This document shows, one piece after another, positions 12,411-18,366 of a stretch of DNA of 64,000 bases. The notes beneath the pieces were generated by a model. That model did not search any database and was not told the DNA's origin. It saw only the letters and a program-made list of their open reading frames with translations. The stretch's first letter is position 1, and the number at the start of each line of letters is the position of its first letter. Source of the DNA: Gammaproteobacteria bacterium (GTDB taxonomy: Bacteria > Pseudomonadota > Gammaproteobacteria > Pseudomonadales > Azotimanducaceae); the NCBI GenBank assembly GCA_020832085.1, contig JAFIFJ010000138.1, positions 9,534 to 73,533 on the forward strand. The letters are read 5' to 3'. A program made the translations under genes and the position numbers.

Positions 12411-12905
12411 TCACCGCTCGATGCGATAGGGCGTCTCGAACTCGTGCACCTCGGTATCGTCGTCAGAGCTGTCGTCGGCGATGCGATCGATGACGGCGAA
12501 GAGGGTCGCTTCGGCCAGCGGCGTCAGGACGGCGTGCCAGGTTCCGGGCAGGTAGTTGACGCCTTCGCCGCCACTGGCGAGGAAGGCGCGTGGCTGGCCA
12601 GGACGACCTTCCTCATCCGGGCAGACGATGGCCAGATAGGGATCGGCAGCTAGGGGCATGAAAGCCTGCGAGCCGAGTCGGTGACGCTCCACGAAAGTGA
12701 GCTCGAAGGGCAGCTTCCTGGCCACCGAGCGGAACAGGCTCAGACCGAGGCGACCGTCGGCGGCACGCAGCCGCGCCAGATCGTGCCAGCGTCCGCAGCG
12801 CTCCTGATTGATGATGCGGTCCGGTTCGCCGCTGGCTGCAATGACGTCACCAAAGGCAGCGAAGGCCGCCGGGTCCAGGGCTTCGATTCGGATCACGCGG
12901 GTCAT
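12411..12905 (-). CDS. allA: Ureidoglycolate lyase
   Basis: MTRVIRIEALDPAAFAAFGDVI...GSQAFMPL...NYLPGTWH is the AllA fold signature (164 aa). It is the C-terminal part of ORF 12411..13601. Its start overlaps the upstream stop (ATGA). Confidence 0.8.
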   Translation of the reverse strand: MTRVIRIEALDPAAFAAFGDVIAASGEPDRIINQERCGRWHDLARLRAADGRLGLSLFRSVARKLPFELTFVERHRLGSQAFMPLAADPYLAIVCPDEEGRPGQPRAFLASGGEGVNYLPGTWHAVLTPLAEATLFAVIDRIADDSSDDDTEVHEFETPYRIER

Positions 12906-13738
12906 CGGCCGAAGGCTCCCGGCCCCTTCAGTCGGGGGTGGCGATTCACGTCCTTGTACAGCAGATAGCGGAAGCGTCCCGGGCCGCCGGCATAGCAGGA
13001 CTGGGGACAGAACGCCCGCAGCCACATGTAGTCGCCGGCCTCCACCTCCACCCAATCCCGGTTCAGGCGATACACCGCCTTGCCTTCGAGGACGTAGAGG
13101 CCGTGCTCCATGACGTGGGTCTCCTCGAAGGGGATGACGCCGCCGGGTTCGAAGGTGACGATGTTGACGTGCATGTCGTGGCGGAGATCGTCCACGGCCA
13201 CGAAGCGGCTGGTGAGCCAGGCGCCGTTGGTGTCCGGCATGGGTTCCGGCGTGACGTCCAGGTCGTGACTGATCAGCGGCGGCGGGGCGGCCAGCCCCGG
13301 CGCCGCTTCGTAGCACTTGCGGATCCAGTGGAAAACCGCAGGTTGGCCACCCGGGTTGGTCAGGGTCCAGGGACAACCCGGCGGCAGATAGACATAGGCA
13401 CCGGCGATCAGCGGGTGGCGGTCGCTGCCGAGGTTCAGCTCGGGGTGGCCTGCGACCACGAACAGGACCCCTTCGGCATCGACATCGGGCTCCGGCGTCG
13501 GCGAGCCGCCGCCGGGAGCGACCTCCATGATGTAGTGGGAAAAGGTTTCGGCGAAGCCCGACAGGGGACGGGCGATGATCCAGCAGCGGGTGGCTTCCCA
13601 TCCCGGCAGACGGCTGGTGACGATGTCCGAGAGTACGCCGCGGGGGATCACCGCATAGGCTTCGGTGAACACCGCGCGACCGGTGTGGAGTCGACTCTGG
13701 GGCGGCAGACCGCCTTCGGGAACCGCGTAGGAAATCAT
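12902..13738 (-). CDS. Bicupin (S)-ureidoglycine aminohydrolase ('ura-cupin' family)
   Basis: 278 aa. MISYAVPEGGLPPQSRLHTGRAVFTEAYAVIPRGVLSDIV... with two cupin halves, in an allantoin-pathway context. 4-nt overlaps with both neighbours. Confidence 0.75.
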   Translation of the reverse strand: MISYAVPEGGLPPQSRLHTGRAVFTEAYAVIPRGVLSDIVTSRLPGWEATRCWIIARPLSGFAETFSHYIMEVAPGGGSPTPEPDVDAEGVLFVVAGHPELNLGSDRHPLIAGAYVYLPPGCPWTLTNPGGQPAVFHWIRKCYEAAPGLAAPPPLISHDLDVTPEPMPDTNGAWLTSRFVAVDDLRHDMHVNIVTFEPGGVIPFEETHVMEHGLYVLEGKAVYRLNRDWVEVEAGDYMWLRAFCPQSCYAGGPGRFRYLLYKDVNRHPRLKGPGAFGR

Positions 13739-15153
13739 GGCAACAGCTCCTTGATGCGCAGGGCCGCGATGCGCTCCACCTGTCGGCAGGCTTCGGCGAA
13801 TTCTATGTCCGTGGCGTGCTCCATGCGCAGGGCGAGCAGAGCGAGAATCGTCGCCTTGTCGTGATCCCGGGCGGCGATGATGAAGGGGAAGCCGTGGCGC
13901 GAACGATACTCGGCGTTGGCGGTCTCGAAGGCCGCGAACTCGGCATCGGTGAGGGCATCGAGTCCGGCGGCGGCCTGCTCGCGGGTGGATTCCGGCGTCA
14001 GGGCGCGACTGCGGGCCAGCTTTCCGGCCAGGTCCGGATGGGCCTGGAGGATGGCCAGCCGCTCCGCCCTGCTGGCACTGCGAAACGCCTGCACCATGGC
14101 CGCATGAAGCCCCTCTGAAGTATCGTTGGCAGGCCCGAGCTCAGCCGCAAAGCAGCGCTCGGCGATCCAGGCGCCGCCTTCGAAGACGCCGCTGAAGCGG
14201 GCCAGGAAGGCGGCCTGGTCCAGCTGGCTGGGACGCAGTGCTCCCGGCCGGGGTGGGTGGGCCCTGGCCCAGTGCTCGGCAATGTCGATGCGCCGTGGAA
14301 ACCACACCCGCTCATGGCTTTGGGCGTGATCGATGAAGCGGGCCAGGGCCGCGCTGCGGCCGGGACGCCCGGCCAGCCGGCAGTGCAGGCCCACGTTGAG
14401 CAGCTTCGGCTGTCCGGCCCGGCCTTCGGCGTTGAGAACGTCGAAGGCATCACGCAGGTAGTCGAAGAAATGAGTCCCTGAATTGAAGCCACCGGCGGTG
14501 GCGAAGCGCATGTCGTTGCTGTCCAGGGTGTAGGGATTGATGAGGTGGTCGCGACCCTGGTGCTCGATCCAGTAGGGCAGGTCGTCGGCATAGCTGTCCG
14601 AGAGGTAGTCGAAGCAGCCGAATTCGGCACCCAGGGCAACGGTGTGCGGGGAACATCGGCCGGTGTACCAGCCCCGTGCTGCCTCGCCCACCACCGCCTG
14701 ATGCAGGCGCAGAGCCTCGGCCATGGCGCGGCGTTCCGCCTCAACGGTCATGTCCTTGTGCTCGATCCACTTCAGGCCGTGGCAGGCGATCTCCCAGCCC
14801 GCCTCGACCATGGCGGCCACCTGGGCCGGGCTGCGGGCCAAGGCCGTGGCGACGCCGAACACGGTGACCGGGATGCCGCAGCCGGTGAACAGTCGATGCA
14901 GGCGCCAGAAACCGGCGCGGGCGCCGTAGTCGTAGAGGGATTCCATGTTCCAGTGGCGCTGTCCCGGCCAGGGCTCGGCGCCGACGATCTCGCTCAAGAA
15001 GGCCTCAGAGCTGGCGTCGCCGTGCAGCAGACTGCGCTCGCCCCCCTCCTCGTAGTTGAGCACGAACTGCACGGCAATGCGGGCGTGGTCGGGCCAGGGG
15101 TCCGGGGGAGGGTGGGCACCGTAGCCGTGAAGGTCGCGAGGGTAGCGGTTCAT
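13735..15153 (-). CDS. puuE: Fusion: allantoinase PuuE (polysaccharide-deacetylase type) + OHCU decarboxylase UraD
   Basis: N-terminal MNRYPRDLHGYGAHPP...AVQFVLNYEEGGE...NMESLYDYGARAGFWR is PuuE-like. C-terminal ...LQAHPDLAGKLA...FETANAEYRSRHGFPFIIAARDH is UraD-like. Start at the internal Met of ORF 13735..15225. Confidence 0.85.
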   Translation of the reverse strand: MNRYPRDLHGYGAHPPPDPWPDHARIAVQFVLNYEEGGERSLLHGDASSEAFLSEIVGAEPWPGQRHWNMESLYDYGARAGFWRLHRLFTGCGIPVTVFGVATALARSPAQVAAMVEAGWEIACHGLKWIEHKDMTVEAERRAMAEALRLHQAVVGEAARGWYTGRCSPHTVALGAEFGCFDYLSDSYADDLPYWIEHQGRDHLINPYTLDSNDMRFATAGGFNSGTHFFDYLRDAFDVLNAEGRAGQPKLLNVGLHCRLAGRPGRSAALARFIDHAQSHERVWFPRRIDIAEHWARAHPPRPGALRPSQLDQAAFLARFSGVFEGGAWIAERCFAAELGPANDTSEGLHAAMVQAFRSASRAERLAILQAHPDLAGKLARSRALTPESTREQAAAGLDALTDAEFAAFETANAEYRSRHGFPFIIAARDHDKATILALLALRMEHATDIEFAEACRQVERIAALRIKELLP

Positions 15154-15154
15154 T

Positions 15155-15170
15155 TGGGCAGACCTTTGCA
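15155..15170 (+). promoter_or_regulatory. Candidate sigma54 (-24/-12) promoter for uraH
   Basis: TGGGCAGACCTTTGCA: TGG-N9-TGCA with GG-N10-GC spacing. It begins 2 nt beyond the divergent puuE ATG and about 97 nt upstream of the uraH ATG. Confidence 0.45.
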
Positions 15171-15266
15171 GGAGAGGAGCCAGGGGCTGGGACTGCGGCG
15201 CTTCGACCGGGCGTGCGACTTGCATCGCGTCGGGTTAACGTCAGCATGTCTGCCAGCGAGGAAACC

Positions 15267-15626
15267 ATGACCCGAGGCTATCTCACCACTCACGTCCTCG
15301 ATACCGCCCGGGGGCGGCCGGCGGCGGACCTGACGCTGCACCTCTACCGGCTCGTGGACACAGGGCGGGAGCATCTGGCCACGGTAGTCACCAACGCCGA
15401 TGGCCGCTGCAACGATCCGATCCTGGCCGGTGAGGCCTTCGAGGTCGGTCGCTATGAACTGGAGTTCGAGGTGGGCGCCTGGCTGGCAGCCGGCGGGCGC
15501 GCCGAAGGCAGCCCGGTCTTCCTGGACGTGGTGCCCATACGTTTCGGGATTGGGGATGCTTCGGCCCACTATCACGTACCGCTGCTCCTTTCGCCTTACG
15601 GTTACACGACCTATCGGGGCAGTTGA
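15267..15626 (+). CDS. uraH: 5-hydroxyisourate hydrolase (transthyretin-like)
   Basis: MTRGYLTTHVLDTARGRPAA...HYHVPLLLSPYGYTTYRGS with the diagnostic C-terminal YRGS. GAGGA Shine-Dalgarno before the ATG. Confidence 0.9.
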   Translation: MTRGYLTTHVLDTARGRPAADLTLHLYRLVDTGREHLATVVTNADGRCNDPILAGEAFEVGRYELEFEVGAWLAAGGRAEGSPVFLDVVPIRFGIGDASAHYHVPLLLSPYGYTTYRGS

Positions 15627-15716
15627 AAACATCGCCCGCACTGCGGGCTCCCACCATGGGCGGGCAGCGGCTCCGGTCGTGTGGCTGCACCTGACCACTG
15701 CGTTGCGCTGCAGCCA
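15626..15716 (-). ncRNA. Hypothetical sigma54-dependent small RNA (~90 nt)
   Basis: Inferred only. A perfect sigma54 promoter at 15742-15727 predicts a start near 15716. The transcript has a 5' stem (GGCUGCA...UGCAGCC) and ends in the REP hairpin GCCCGCAGUGCGGGC followed by GAUGUUUU. No coding potential. Confidence 0.25.
15631..15660 (+). repeat. REP-like palindromic element, copy 1
   Basis: ATCGCCCGCACTGCGGGCTCCCACCATGGG with a perfect GCCCGC-ACT-GCGGGC hairpin (15634-15648). About 27/30 identical to the reverse complement of 18484-18512. Resembles Pseudomonas-type GTGGGAGC REPs. Confidence 0.55.
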
Positions 15717-15744
15717 GGACAGTGCCAGCAAGGACAGTGCCAGC
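15716..15744. repeat. Tandem direct repeat (14-mer x2, period 15)
   Basis: AGGACAGTGCCAGC a AGGACAGTGCCAGC in the uraH-puuD spacer. The junction of the two copies creates the minus-strand sigma54 consensus. Confidence 0.8.
15727..15742 (-). promoter_or_regulatory. Consensus sigma54 promoter on the minus strand (no downstream gene)
   Basis: Minus strand reads TGGCAC-TGTCC-TTGCT, a full match to TGGCAC-N5-TTGCW. It points away from puuD and toward the 3' end of uraH. Confidence 0.55.
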
Positions 15745-15760
15745 TGGCCCGTATCCTGCT
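15745..15760 (+). promoter_or_regulatory. Candidate sigma54 promoter for puuD
   Basis: TGGCCCGTATCCTGCT (TGG-N9-TGCT), about 38 nt upstream of the puuD GTG. It sits back-to-back with the minus-strand element through the palindrome CCAGCTGG. Confidence 0.45.
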
Positions 15761-15797
15761 TCGTCGGTGGCGCTGACCGTACCTTGGGGAGACGTTC

Positions 15798-17030
15798 GTG
15801 ATCGACACAGTCCTGCTGCTGGAGTGGGCTGAACTGGCGCTGCGGTGGCTGCATGTGATCACCGCCGTGGCCTGGATCGGTTCCTCCTTCTATTTCATTG
15901 CGCTGGATCTCGGACTGCGCCGGCCGGGGACGCTCCCGGACGGGGTGGCCGGTGAACAGTGGCAGGTCCATGGCGGGGGCTTCTACCACCTGCAGAAGTA
16001 CAGCGTGGCGCCGGCAGCCCTGCCGGAACGGCTGGTCTGGTTCAAGTGGGAGAGCTACAGCACCTGGCTGTCGGGGTTTGCGCTGCTGATCCTGGTCTAC
16101 TACGTGGGGGCAGAGTTCTACCTCATCGATCATGCCCGTCGGCCGCTGTCGCCGACGATCGCCATCATCATCTCGTTAGGATCCCTGGGCGTCGGCTGGC
16201 TGGTCTACGATCGTCTCTGCAGGAGCGCCCTGGGGCGCCACGACACCGCGCTGATGGTGACCCTGTTCGCGCTGCTGACGGCGGCGGGCTGGGCCTACAC
16301 GGAACTGTTCACCGGCCGTGCCGCGCTGCTGCATCTCGGTGCGCTCACGGCCACCATCATGTCGGCCAACGTCTTCCTCGTCATCATCCCCAAGCAGAAG
16401 ATCGTGGTGAGGGAGCTCAAGGCCGGGCGGGCGCCGGATCCCGCCCTGGGCAAGCAGGCAAAACAGCGTTCCACCCACAACAACTATCTGACGCTGCCCG
16501 TCATCTTCCTGATGCTGTCGAACCACTACCCGCTGGTGTTCGCCACGCCCTACAACTGGCTCATGGCCAGTCTGGTGTTTCTGATGGGGGTGACGATCCG
16601 CCACTTCTTCAACAGCATTCACGCCGGTCGCGGCCGTCCCTGGTGGACCTGGCTGGCCACCGCCTTGCTGTTTGCCGTCATCATCAAGCTGTCATCCCTG
16701 CAGCCGCCACCGGAAGCGGGTGGGGAGCTTCCGGTGTCCGCGCTGCGCCATCTGCAGGCCGAGGGCTTCGAAGAGGTGCAGATCACGCTGCTGATGCGTT
16801 GCGTCATGTGCCACGGGGATCATGCAGCCTGGCCAGGTCTGAACAGTGCCGCCCGCAGCGTCAAACTCGACACGCCCGAGCGCATCGCGGCCCAGGCCCG
16901 GGCCGTCTATCTGCATGCGGGCGTCAGCCACGCCATGCCGCCGGGGAATCGAACCTACATGACCGCTGCGGAGCGGGCGGGCATTGTCACCTGGTATCGG
17001 GCTGCAGCGCCTGCAGCAGGCGCGCCTTGA
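15798..17030 (+). CDS. puuD: Membrane urate hydroxylase PuuD (cytochrome c type)
   Basis: Multi-TM protein, WLHVITAVAWIGSSFYFIALD...GGGFYHLQKY, with a C-terminal CVMCHG haem-c motif in a urate-pathway context. GTG start. Confidence 0.85.
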   Translation: MIDTVLLLEWAELALRWLHVITAVAWIGSSFYFIALDLGLRRPGTLPDGVAGEQWQVHGGGFYHLQKYSVAPAALPERLVWFKWESYSTWLSGFALLILVYYVGAEFYLIDHARRPLSPTIAIIISLGSLGVGWLVYDRLCRSALGRHDTALMVTLFALLTAAGWAYTELFTGRAALLHLGALTATIMSANVFLVIIPKQKIVVRELKAGRAPDPALGKQAKQRSTHNNYLTLPVIFLMLSNHYPLVFATPYNWLMASLVFLMGVTIRHFFNSIHAGRGRPWWTWLATALLFAVIIKLSSLQPPPEAGGELPVSALRHLQAEGFEEVQITLLMRCVMCHGDHAAWPGLNSAARSVKLDTPERIAAQARAVYLHAGVSHAMPPGNRTYMTAAERAGIVTWYRAAAPAAGAP

Positions 17031-18366
17031 TCGAAGGGCCGGGAACCGGTTCGAAGGCGAAGCTCGCGCCGAGGTACCGCGACTGATTGGCAGGCAGGGC
17101 GATCCAATCCGAGGTCAGCAGCCGGTAATGCCGACCTTCCTCGGGCTGCGGCCAGACGCCATGCAGGGTATCGCCGCCGCGCTCGGCCAGGGGCCGCTGC
17201 TGCTGCGGCGTTGCCCGGTCGATGATGCTGCGCAGGGTGGCGGCGTCCACCTGCACCTGCACAAGACCGTTGTCGAAGCGCAGGAAGCGGTCGAAGCGGT
17301 AGCGGCTCACGTCCCCGGCGGGCAGACCGGTGCCGAAAGAGGTGTGGTTGAGGAAGACCGCATCCACCTCAGGATCCTGCTGCAGCTGCCGGCTGGCCCA
17401 GCGGGCGGCCGCCGGCAGGGTCATGGCCTCGTCGATCCGGCCCACGGTCCGGCGCTCCGCAGTCGTGAGCGTGGTGTCGCGCAGCTGCTGCACGGCCTCC
17501 GCCATGGCCCCATCCTCAGGACCTCGCGCTGCCATGCGCGTCAGGACCACTTCCGGCTCGCCTGCCCTAGCGCTCTCCGAACTGAGGCGGATGGTGGCCA
17601 GGGTGAAGTGCTCGGCCCCGGATCCGGAATGGACGTAGGGAATGCCGGCCACGGCGTCTTCGAGCAGCAGGTGATCGTGGGCGCCGAAGAACAGCAGCGG
17701 CCGTGGTCCTCGGGCGAGCACCTTGCCGACTTCCAGGTCAGCCTCGAGGCCGGCGTGGCTGGCCAGCACCACGTGTCCGGCAGCGCCGGCCAGGGTCTGC
17801 CAATGCTCTGCGATCCAGGCTGCGGGATCAGGCAGCTGCAGGGTCTCCCGCAGCCGCGCAGGCCAGGTGGCGAGCTGATTGGTGGTGACTCCCACCACCC
17901 GCAGACTGATGTCACCCAGGGTGACGTCAACACTCGGGCGCGCCACTGGGGAACCGTTGGCAAGAGCCACGTTACCCAGCAGCTCAATGTCGAGGGCGGC
18001 GGCCCGACGGACCAGCTCCTCGGGATCGATCAGGTCGAACTCGTGGTTGCCGATGTTGAACACCACCGGTCCGAAGCCGCGCAGCCGTTCGAGCAGTGCC
18101 CAGTCGAGCTCGCCGTCGCTGCGGGCGGCCATGGGGTCGCCGGCCTCGAAAAGATCGCCATTGATCAGGATCAGACGTGGCGTCGCCGGATCATCTGCGG
18201 CGAGTCGGGTCAGGCTACCGAGCAGGCGCGGATACTGATCGACGGCCGAATGCAGGTCGGCCAAGTGAATGATCTGGAACGCTGCCGGCAAGGCGGCAGG
18301 GCGGCATGCGACCAGCGAGATCAGGACCAGGGCGGCCACAACCATGCGGCAGGTGGATGGAATCAT
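16987..18366 (-). CDS. Lipoprotein 5'-nucleotidase / metallophosphoesterase (UshA-like)
   Basis: MIPSTCRMVVAALVLISLVAC (lipobox LVAC), HLADLHS, INGDLFEAG, NIGNHEFD metallophosphatase motifs and a C-terminal nucleotidase-like domain. Start at the internal Met of ORF 16987..18558. Confidence 0.75.
   Translation of the reverse strand: MIPSTCRMVVAALVLISLVACRPAALPAAFQIIHLADLHSAVDQYPRLLGSLTRLAADDPATPRLILINGDLFEAGDPMAARSDGELDWALLERLRGFGPVVFNIGNHEFDLIDPEELVRRAAALDIELLGNVALANGSPVARPSVDVTLGDISLRVVGVTTNQLATWPARLRETLQLPDPAAWIAEHWQTLAGAAGHVVLASHAGLEADLEVGKVLARGPRPLLFFGAHDHLLLEDAVAGIPYVHSGSGAEHFTLATIRLSSESARAGEPEVVLTRMAARGPEDGAMAEAVQQLRDTTLTTAERRTVGRIDEAMTLPAAARWASRQLQQDPEVDAVFLNHTSFGTGLPAGDVSRYRFDRFLRFDNGLVQVQVDAATLRSIIDRATPQQQRPLAERGGDTLHGVWPQPEEGRHYRLLTSDWIALPANQSRYLGASFAFEPVPGPSIKARLLQALQPDTR

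Follow-up and report, generated by a model that had tools for sequence, protein, structure and literature searches.

We examined the spacer between uraH and puuD, two plus-strand genes of urate catabolism, in a 64,000-nucleotide stretch of DNA (the window; contig JAFIFJ010000138.1) that is part of a metagenome-assembled genome, G000, of 4.64 Mb, 65% G+C and 173 contigs. The spacer, which extends from the uraH stop codon TGA (15624-15626) to the puuD start codon GTG at 15798, is 171 bp long, as a first-pass annotation of the window had stated. On its minus strand lies an element, P(minus), which by comparative criteria is a genuine, selected sigma-54 promoter; a weaker sigma-54-like element on the plus strand, P(plus), faces puuD. 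P(minus) points at the 3′ end of uraH, a gene of the same pathway in opposite orientation, and its sole plausible target, the puuE operon, lies behind uraH, about 0.5 kb away. For puuE and uraH the true start codons (ATG at 15153 and ATG at 15267) were assigned from the sequence and from gene calls in relatives (472 and 119 amino acids); both genes are shorter than the longest open reading frames (ORFs), and the intergenic gap between them is 113 bp (15154-15266). The features are collected in Table 1.

Relatives were taken from two sources, namely three congeners from a genome collection (G001, G003 and G004) and lineages from public assemblies that were found through their PuuD and UraH proteins. 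The comparison set consists of seven distinct lineages in which the order puuE(-)/uraH(+)/puuD(+) occurs together with the element and in which puuD is 72-100% identical; G003 and L146 were counted together as one lineage.

The sigma-54 elements around uraH

P(minus) fits the consensus TGGCAC-N5-TTGCW at 11 of 11 specified bases, with GG and GC exactly 10 bp apart. The first-pass annotation had named TGGCAC-TGTCC-TTGCT on the minus strand as the best sigma-54 match in the window, and it is indeed the only match there with zero mismatches and one of six in the whole 4.64-Mb genome. Base composition leads one to expect about 3.6 perfect matches genome-wide (9.3 Mb, both strands) by chance, so the match alone is not significant and it is conservation that counts. 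All 11 specified bases were identical in 7/7 lineages, the plus strand reading AGCAA-N5-GTGCCA in each of them. The N5 was TGTCC, TTTCC, CTTAC or CTTCC, with variation in three of its five columns, and the DNA flanking P(minus) could not be aligned among the lineages. At the four-fold degenerate sites of uraH, in the same seven lineages, only 10 of 35 (29%) were invariant, and from these sites the neutral probability that all 11 bases of P(minus) would remain invariant is about 1e-6. The invariance of the specified bases, together with the variable N5 and the low invariance at the four-fold sites of uraH, thus indicates that P(minus) is under purifying selection.

The uraH stop codon and the P(minus) box are separated by 9 nt in G001, by 12 nt in L140 and by about 90-150 nt in L135, G000 and G003, and nothing in this interval is conserved among the lineages. 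The promoter was kept in all seven lineages, and the tandem duplication in which it is embedded here, which has a 15-nt period, was found in this genome only. No sigma-54 site was seen in L143 and L144, which have the same gene order and a puuD that is 70% identical, and no comparable strong site was detected upstream of puuD in relatives from the family and order or in about 70 Rhodobacteraceae loci that were scanned. The element is thus confined to one genus-level clade.

As for the other five perfect sigma-54 sites in the genome, four lie outside the long ORFs that flank them. Downstream of two of the five a protein-like ORF begins within about 100 nt, one of these being a type IV pilin gene (MKTNQKGFTLIE...). 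Two perfect sites are located on contig C129 near 11696 (minus strand) and on contig C106 near 40397 (plus strand), one of them 94 nt before the type IV pilin gene and the other beside a gene for an unassigned sigma-54 activator. Type IV pilin genes are classic targets of sigma-54.

The -24 boxes of P(minus) and P(plus) are only 2 bp apart. Back-to-back promoter-like elements joined through a palindrome had been described in the first-pass annotation, and both are present, with CCAGCTGG at 15741-15748; the palindrome reads CCATCTGG in L140 and L142 and is therefore not conserved. P(plus) was kept in six of the seven lineages, 38-43 nt from the puuD start, and its N5 is almost invariant too; the block GCTGGCCCGTATCCTGCTTCG is invariant, N5 included, in 5/6 lineages. 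The leader predicted for P(plus) is 27 nt long and has a Shine-Dalgarno sequence, GGGGAGA. On its own P(plus) is weak, about 1,250 sites of at least 9/11 being present in the genome, and it is gone in G001, where P(minus) is still perfect, which makes P(minus) the central element. The genome does not use abutting divergent sigma-54 pairs as a general design (2 seen, about 1.3 expected), and a scan of the metagenome with the plus-strand block GCTGGCCCGTATCCTGCTT gave 14 matches, all of them unrelated and due to chance. In L142 a terminator-like hairpin with a T-rich tail was noticed on the plus strand directly after the uraH stop codon (2391-2413), so that puuD would depend there on its own promoter.

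A further sigma-54-like element, PuraH, precedes uraH and is convergent with P(minus). It was found at the same position in 6/7 lineages; three of its four variable columns are in the N5 and the fourth is already off consensus. A conserved GGGTTAACGT block comes after PuraH. Another candidate for the uraH promoter, at 15155-15170, was rejected, since unlike PuraH it is not conserved.

Table 1. Genes and sequence elements in and around the uraH-puuD spacer (window coordinates)
Feature	Position	Strand	Remarks
allA (ureidoglycolate lyase gene)		minus	after the bicupin gene in the puuE operon
bicupin gene	12902-13738	minus	downstream of puuE-uraD in the operon
puuE-uraD fusion	13735..15153	minus	allantoinase + OHCU decarboxylase, 472 amino acids; heads the minus-strand operon
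predicted P(minus) leader	15154..15716	minus	563 nt; spacer, full antisense uraH and puuE-uraH intergenic region
PuraH, sigma-54-like	15209..15224	plus	GGGCGTGCGACTTGCA; 58 nt before uraH ATG
uraH	15267..15626	plus	5-hydroxyisourate hydrolase, 119 amino acids; TIGR02962, 131 bits
repetitive extragenic palindromic (REP) element	15631..15654		minus strand reads GTGGGAGCCCGCAGTGCGGGCGAT; hairpin (15634-15648), complement of uraH stop and AAAA mimic a terminator
tandem duplication	15711..15744		15-nt period; Tandem Repeats Finder: 2.3 copies, 94% matches; specific to this genome
second, weaker promoter copy	15727..15712	minus	TGGCACTGTCCTGGCT (10/11); product of the duplication; holds the ancestral GCAGC context
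P(minus)	15742..15727	minus	TGGCAC-TGTCC-TTGCT = TGGCACTGTCCTTGCT; -12 C at 15728; predicted start near 15716
P(plus)	15745..15760	plus	TGGCCC-GTATC-CTGCT = TGGCCCGTATCCTGCT (9/11); faces puuD; predicted start near 15771
puuD	15798..17030	plus	membrane urate hydroxylase; PF06181

A possible antisense leader of the puuE operon

The uraH-puuD spacer may be a two-way sigma-54 control region, in which P(minus) drives the puuE operon through a leader antisense to uraH and P(plus) serves puuD; the reading is based on geometry and conservation, and we consider its chances to be about even. Sigma-54 RNA polymerase would bind P(minus) and wait for an enhancer-binding activator, for which NtrC is the obvious candidate. 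Transcription would begin near 15716, and the transcript would cross the spacer, the whole of uraH in antisense and the 113-bp gap before reaching puuE-uraD, the bicupin gene and allA. It would thus be the nitrogen-regulated mRNA of the puuE operon with a leader of about 560 nt, and this leader, being fully complementary to the uraH mRNA, would link both arms of the pathway much as an excludon does, while P(plus) would serve puuD. As the -24 boxes are so close together, two polymerases are probably unable to bind simultaneously. The sequence features, selection on P(minus), the lack of a conserved terminator and the presence of rpoN and ntrC are established; we infer initiation at P(minus), read-through to puuE, the identity of the activator and the mutual exclusion of the polymerases. 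The genome encodes one rpoN and eight enhancer-binding proteins, among them NtrC, NorR, PspF and PrsR (PEP-CTERM regulator), and the assignment of NtrC is clear (748 bits vs a cut-off of 559).

Several comparative observations are consistent with a leader that reaches puuE. The geometry, that is, divergent neighbours with a promoter beyond uraH and a leader overlapping uraH in antisense, holds in 7/7 lineages, and the predicted leaders were 437-583 nt long in the six lineages measured. In every lineage the first stretch transcribed from P(minus) would be the uraH 3′ end in antisense. Between puuD and puuE, P(minus) is the only sigma-54 site on the minus strand that is conserved, and the portion of the puuE-uraH gap nearest to puuE is conserved neither in sequence nor in length. 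The puuE operon thus appears as a unit without a promoter, and P(minus) as a promoter without a gene. Simple sigma-70 scans in six lineages found no promoter either, a result that is uninformative in 65% G+C DNA. Between P(minus) and puuE no minus-strand terminator-like site was detected in five other lineages, and in G000 there is only the hairpin of a REP element, which is discussed below.

In L143, which has the same gene order and no sigma-54 site, only 44 nt separate puuE and uraH, and overlapping divergent transcription therefore seems inherent to the locus. The divergent starts of puuE (a GTG) and uraH, at 1967-2012 in L143, are likewise 44 nt apart in L144, and this distance is too short for two promoters with leaders. 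The first-pass annotation had offered three readings of the minus-strand transcript. The comparative data agree best with the long leader that crosses uraH in antisense and enters the puuE operon; a cis-antisense RNA is possible, and a small RNA found no support.

Long leaders of this kind have been described. In E. coli, sigma-54 promoters drive mRNAs with 360-760-nt 5′ untranslated regions (UTRs), from sites inside nagB for nagE, yqeC for yqeB and rlmD for relA, and a class of 'intergenic antisense' sites was also defined (Bonocora et al., 2015, PMC4591121). The authors discuss such antisense leaders with reference to the excludons of Listeria (PMC4591121). The leaders predicted here fall inside the E. 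coli range. P(minus) also resembles the E. coli promoters in being a consensus site that is conserved in relatives, lies far upstream of the next co-oriented gene, belongs to a nitrogen-scavenging pathway and is probably linked to NtrC. However, the three confirmed E. coli sites are intragenic in the upstream gene, whereas here the promoter is intergenic, the whole of uraH would be read in antisense and the function is inferred.

The excludons of Listeria monocytogenes, reportedly described by Wurtzel et al. in 2012, have long 5′ UTRs antisense to a divergent neighbour. As in those, the genes here are divergent, the long leader would fully overlap the neighbour, and one transcript would be both mRNA and antisense RNA. 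The excludons of Listeria usually join opposing functions, whereas here both arms belong to one pathway and the promoter is of the sigma-54 type. The feature combines several kinds already known, namely sigma-54 promoters of mRNAs with long 5′ UTRs, an excludon-like layout and a divergent sigma-54 pair, here an unusually tight one.

A number of points weigh against a puuE leader. A sigma-70 promoter for puuE may lie inside the intergenic region or uraH, in DNA of 65% G+C. P(minus) converges on the conserved PuraH though both arms of the pathway are needed together, and it would seem costly to transcribe uraH strongly in antisense. A long and possibly untranslated leader would be exposed to termination by Rho. 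REP hairpins stand in the path of the transcript in three lineages, and the G000 copy, with its weak U tract, may stop some of the transcripts. In addition, no NtrC-like palindrome with at most two mismatches was found in 14900-16500, and a sliding analysis of synonymous-site conservation, run over uraH and the 5′ end of puuD, revealed no segment in which such change is reduced.

We also considered whether the leader could be translated. In such a sigma-54 excludon an ORF of 129-141 codons would carry ribosomes to puuE and shield the leader from Rho, and the abutting promoters would fire either leftward or rightward at each activation; this version is decidedly doubtful. In 7/7 promoter-bearing lineages the minus-strand reading frame opposite uraH continues without a stop across the puuE-uraH gap, and its final TGA overlaps the ATG of puuE (ATGA). 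The length of the gap is 2 mod 3 in all seven (113, 101, 95, 98, 113, 101 and 77 nt, measured in the window, L135, L142, L140, L146, L147 and L003) despite at least four independent indels. The same phase was seen in L143 (44 nt), which was measured as well and has neither the promoter nor the long open frame. On the strand opposite the conserved HYHVPLLL motif is a candidate start, AGGAG-N9-GTG/ATG. The peptide encoded by the ORF is not conserved, its tail included, and an open antisense frame of uraH is expected from codon usage (P about 0.66), so only the conserved intergenic phase is notable. The open frame could be coincidental, or it could mark a leader that is translated and coupled to puuE.

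Maps made by chromatin immunoprecipitation commonly show sigma-54 sites with no gene in front of them, and their purpose is debated. P(minus) offers a natural case, in which such a site has been kept perfect across a genus while its surroundings turned over. If the puuE leader exists, nitrogen control of urate catabolism in this clade would depend on an antisense leader and on a sigma-54 region that works in both directions, and a fragment of about 40 bp would be a test bed for two holoenzymes that share abutting -24 boxes and for the effect of an antisense leader on the gene embedded in it.

Alternative explanations and the REP hairpin

P(minus) could instead give rise to a pure cis-antisense RNA, a non-coding transcript of variable length that lowers or times the expression of uraH and the uraH-puuD read-through and does not serve puuE. 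Base pairing with cleavage by RNase III would be one mode of action, and collision of its polymerases with those from the uraH promoter another. The order of transcription, with the uraH 3′ end read in antisense first in every lineage, and the convergence of P(minus) on the conserved uraH promoter both speak for such an RNA, and in Yersinia mutations in antisense RpoN sites alter the expression of the sense gene (PMC7657599). Nevertheless, we regard this explanation as unlikely. No conserved 3′ end or structure was found, uraH lacks the suppressed synonymous variation that would mark a functional antisense segment, and puuE would be left without a conserved promoter. It is also hard to see why a promoter of perfect consensus would be kept just to damp a gene of the same pathway.

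A mostly non-productive site, at which the sigma-54 holoenzyme acts by occupancy or DNA topology, seems quite unlikely as well. The closed complex might block read-through from uraH to puuD or compete with the abutting weak puuD promoter; alternatively, the firing of P(minus) might supercoil the DNA and stimulate the weak puuD promoter, as Po does for Pr in the dmp system. With -24 boxes 2 bp apart the footprints must overlap, judging from known sigma-54 footprints, and the invariance of GCTGGCCCGTATCCTGCTTCG with its N5 in 5/6 lineages exceeds the needs of a promoter alone. It has been documented that supercoiling can couple a weak divergent promoter to a strong sigma-54 promoter back to back with it (PMC5175336), and silent and repressive binding of RpoN has been documented too (PMC7657599). 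As with dmp Po (sigma-54) and Pr (sigma-70) of Pseudomonas, a strong sigma-54 promoter here adjoins a weak one of opposite direction, which supercoiling could drive (PMC5175336); unlike Po/Pr, both elements here are of the sigma-54 type, and the 2 bp between their -24 boxes leave no space for an enhancer. Against a role by occupancy or topology, G001 keeps a perfect P(minus) without P(plus) and without the abutting layout, so the value of the site does not depend on the pair, and in the genome abutting pairs are hardly more frequent than expected.

It is highly improbable that the conserved block is a chance match or the operator of an ordinary transcription factor that resembles two sigma-54 promoters: perfect matches are indeed expected by composition in a genome of this size, and a divergent promoter pair is automatically an inverted repeat, but the palindrome at its centre is not conserved (CCATCTGG in two lineages), the two halves agree at 10/16 positions, namely at 9 of the 11 specified for sigma-54 but at only 1 of the 5 in the spacer, and substitutions concentrate in the N5 as they do in a sigma-54 promoter.

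The headline proposal of the first-pass annotation was that P(minus) makes a discrete small RNA, about 90 nt long (15716 to about 15627), with its 3′ end at a hairpin with a U tract; such an RNA would depend on sigma-54 and act in trans. The hairpin is there: on the minus strand GCCCGCAGTGCGGGC (15648..15634) is followed by GATGTTTTCA, and this is the sole terminator-like site in 15000-16200. It is a loose match to a terminator, with a 6-bp G+C stem followed by GAUGUUUU, in which the Us begin 4 nt past the stem, located 70-90 nt downstream of the predicted start and seen in this genome only. The caveat that the hairpin belongs to a REP-like repeat proved right. The REP is a short imperfect palindrome, GTGGGAGCCCGC-NNN-GCGGGCGAT, that is dispersed in intergenic DNA, with 12 copies in G000 and more than 40 matches in G004, and only 1 of the 12 copies has a T-rich tail, the source of which is the complement of the uraH stop codon plus AAAA. 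In its dispersal it resembles the REP elements of Pseudomonas-type gammaproteobacteria, and it differs from other REP copies in having landed against the uraH stop codon, which gave it an accidental U-rich tail. The hairpin is present in G000, G004 and L135 and absent from G003/L146, L140, L142 and G001, that is, from four of the seven lineages, and the U tract occurs in G000 only, the hairpins of G004 and L135 lacking it.

The body of the proposed RNA fared no better. The sequences of its 5′ stem GGCUGCA...UGCAGCC do occur (GGCTGCA at 15683-15689 and TGCAGCC at 15709-15715), but the putative 95-nt RNA was no more stable than its shuffled versions (-39.5 vs -39.0 +/- 3.3 kcal/mol, z = -0.16). 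The Rfam search that had been suggested was carried out over 14000-18000 at E <= 10 and gave nothing in the spacer, only noise matches outside it. An alignment of the spacers had been suggested to look for covariation; between the promoter and uraH they could not be aligned among the lineages, and no RNA body is conserved. There is no room for an independent RNA body in L140 and G001, where transcription is predicted to start right at the uraH stop codon.

The sigma-54-dependent small RNAs NrsZ of Pseudomonas, GlmY/GlmZ and the Qrr RNAs of Vibrio have conserved bodies and terminators. P(minus) is similar to their promoters in that no protein-coding gene lies directly downstream; it is different in that nothing downstream of it is conserved except antisense uraH. 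A small RNA at this place is thus extremely unlikely, and very probably its appearance is an artefact of the REP insertion. For annotation, the case is a reminder that a REP hairpin which adjoins a stop codon can look like a terminator, so that a small RNA is proposed where there is none.

Tandem arrays and the wider locus

The tandem duplication at P(minus) had been reported as a 14-mer repeated twice. Both copies exist, at 15716-15729 and 15731-15744, with a single A between them, so the true period is 15 nt; relatives carry P(minus) as a single copy. Independent arrays were observed at the same place in other lineages, with a period of 13 nt in G003/L146 (L146, 1386-1448) and 12 nt in L135 (2400-2437). 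Arrays with periods of 15, 13 and 12 nt thus lie directly downstream of the -12 box of P(minus) in 3/7 lineages, with GCAAGG in each unit. The number of copies may differ between close strains: there are 4.8 in L146 and at least five at each of the contig ends of G003 (the end of L125 and the start of L002), where the array interrupts the assembly. The array site is a hot spot of mutation and may be connected with the sigma-54 closed complex.

The genes described here are part of a urate-catabolism cluster, which also contains a purine permease gene and xdhABC on the plus strand and a metallophosphoesterase gene on the minus strand. The PuuD proteins nearest to this one outside the genus are 60-66% identical and come almost entirely from Rhodobacteraceae and other Alphaproteobacteria, and those of gammaproteobacterial genomes from the same family reach 39-45% identity at most. 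This pattern of identities suggests that the puuD gene or the whole cluster was acquired horizontally. In L140 the minus-strand gene upstream of uraH (830-1378) was called at 182 amino acids and has no Pfam match; it opens with the same N-terminal codons as puuE and may be a truncated or rearranged puuE.

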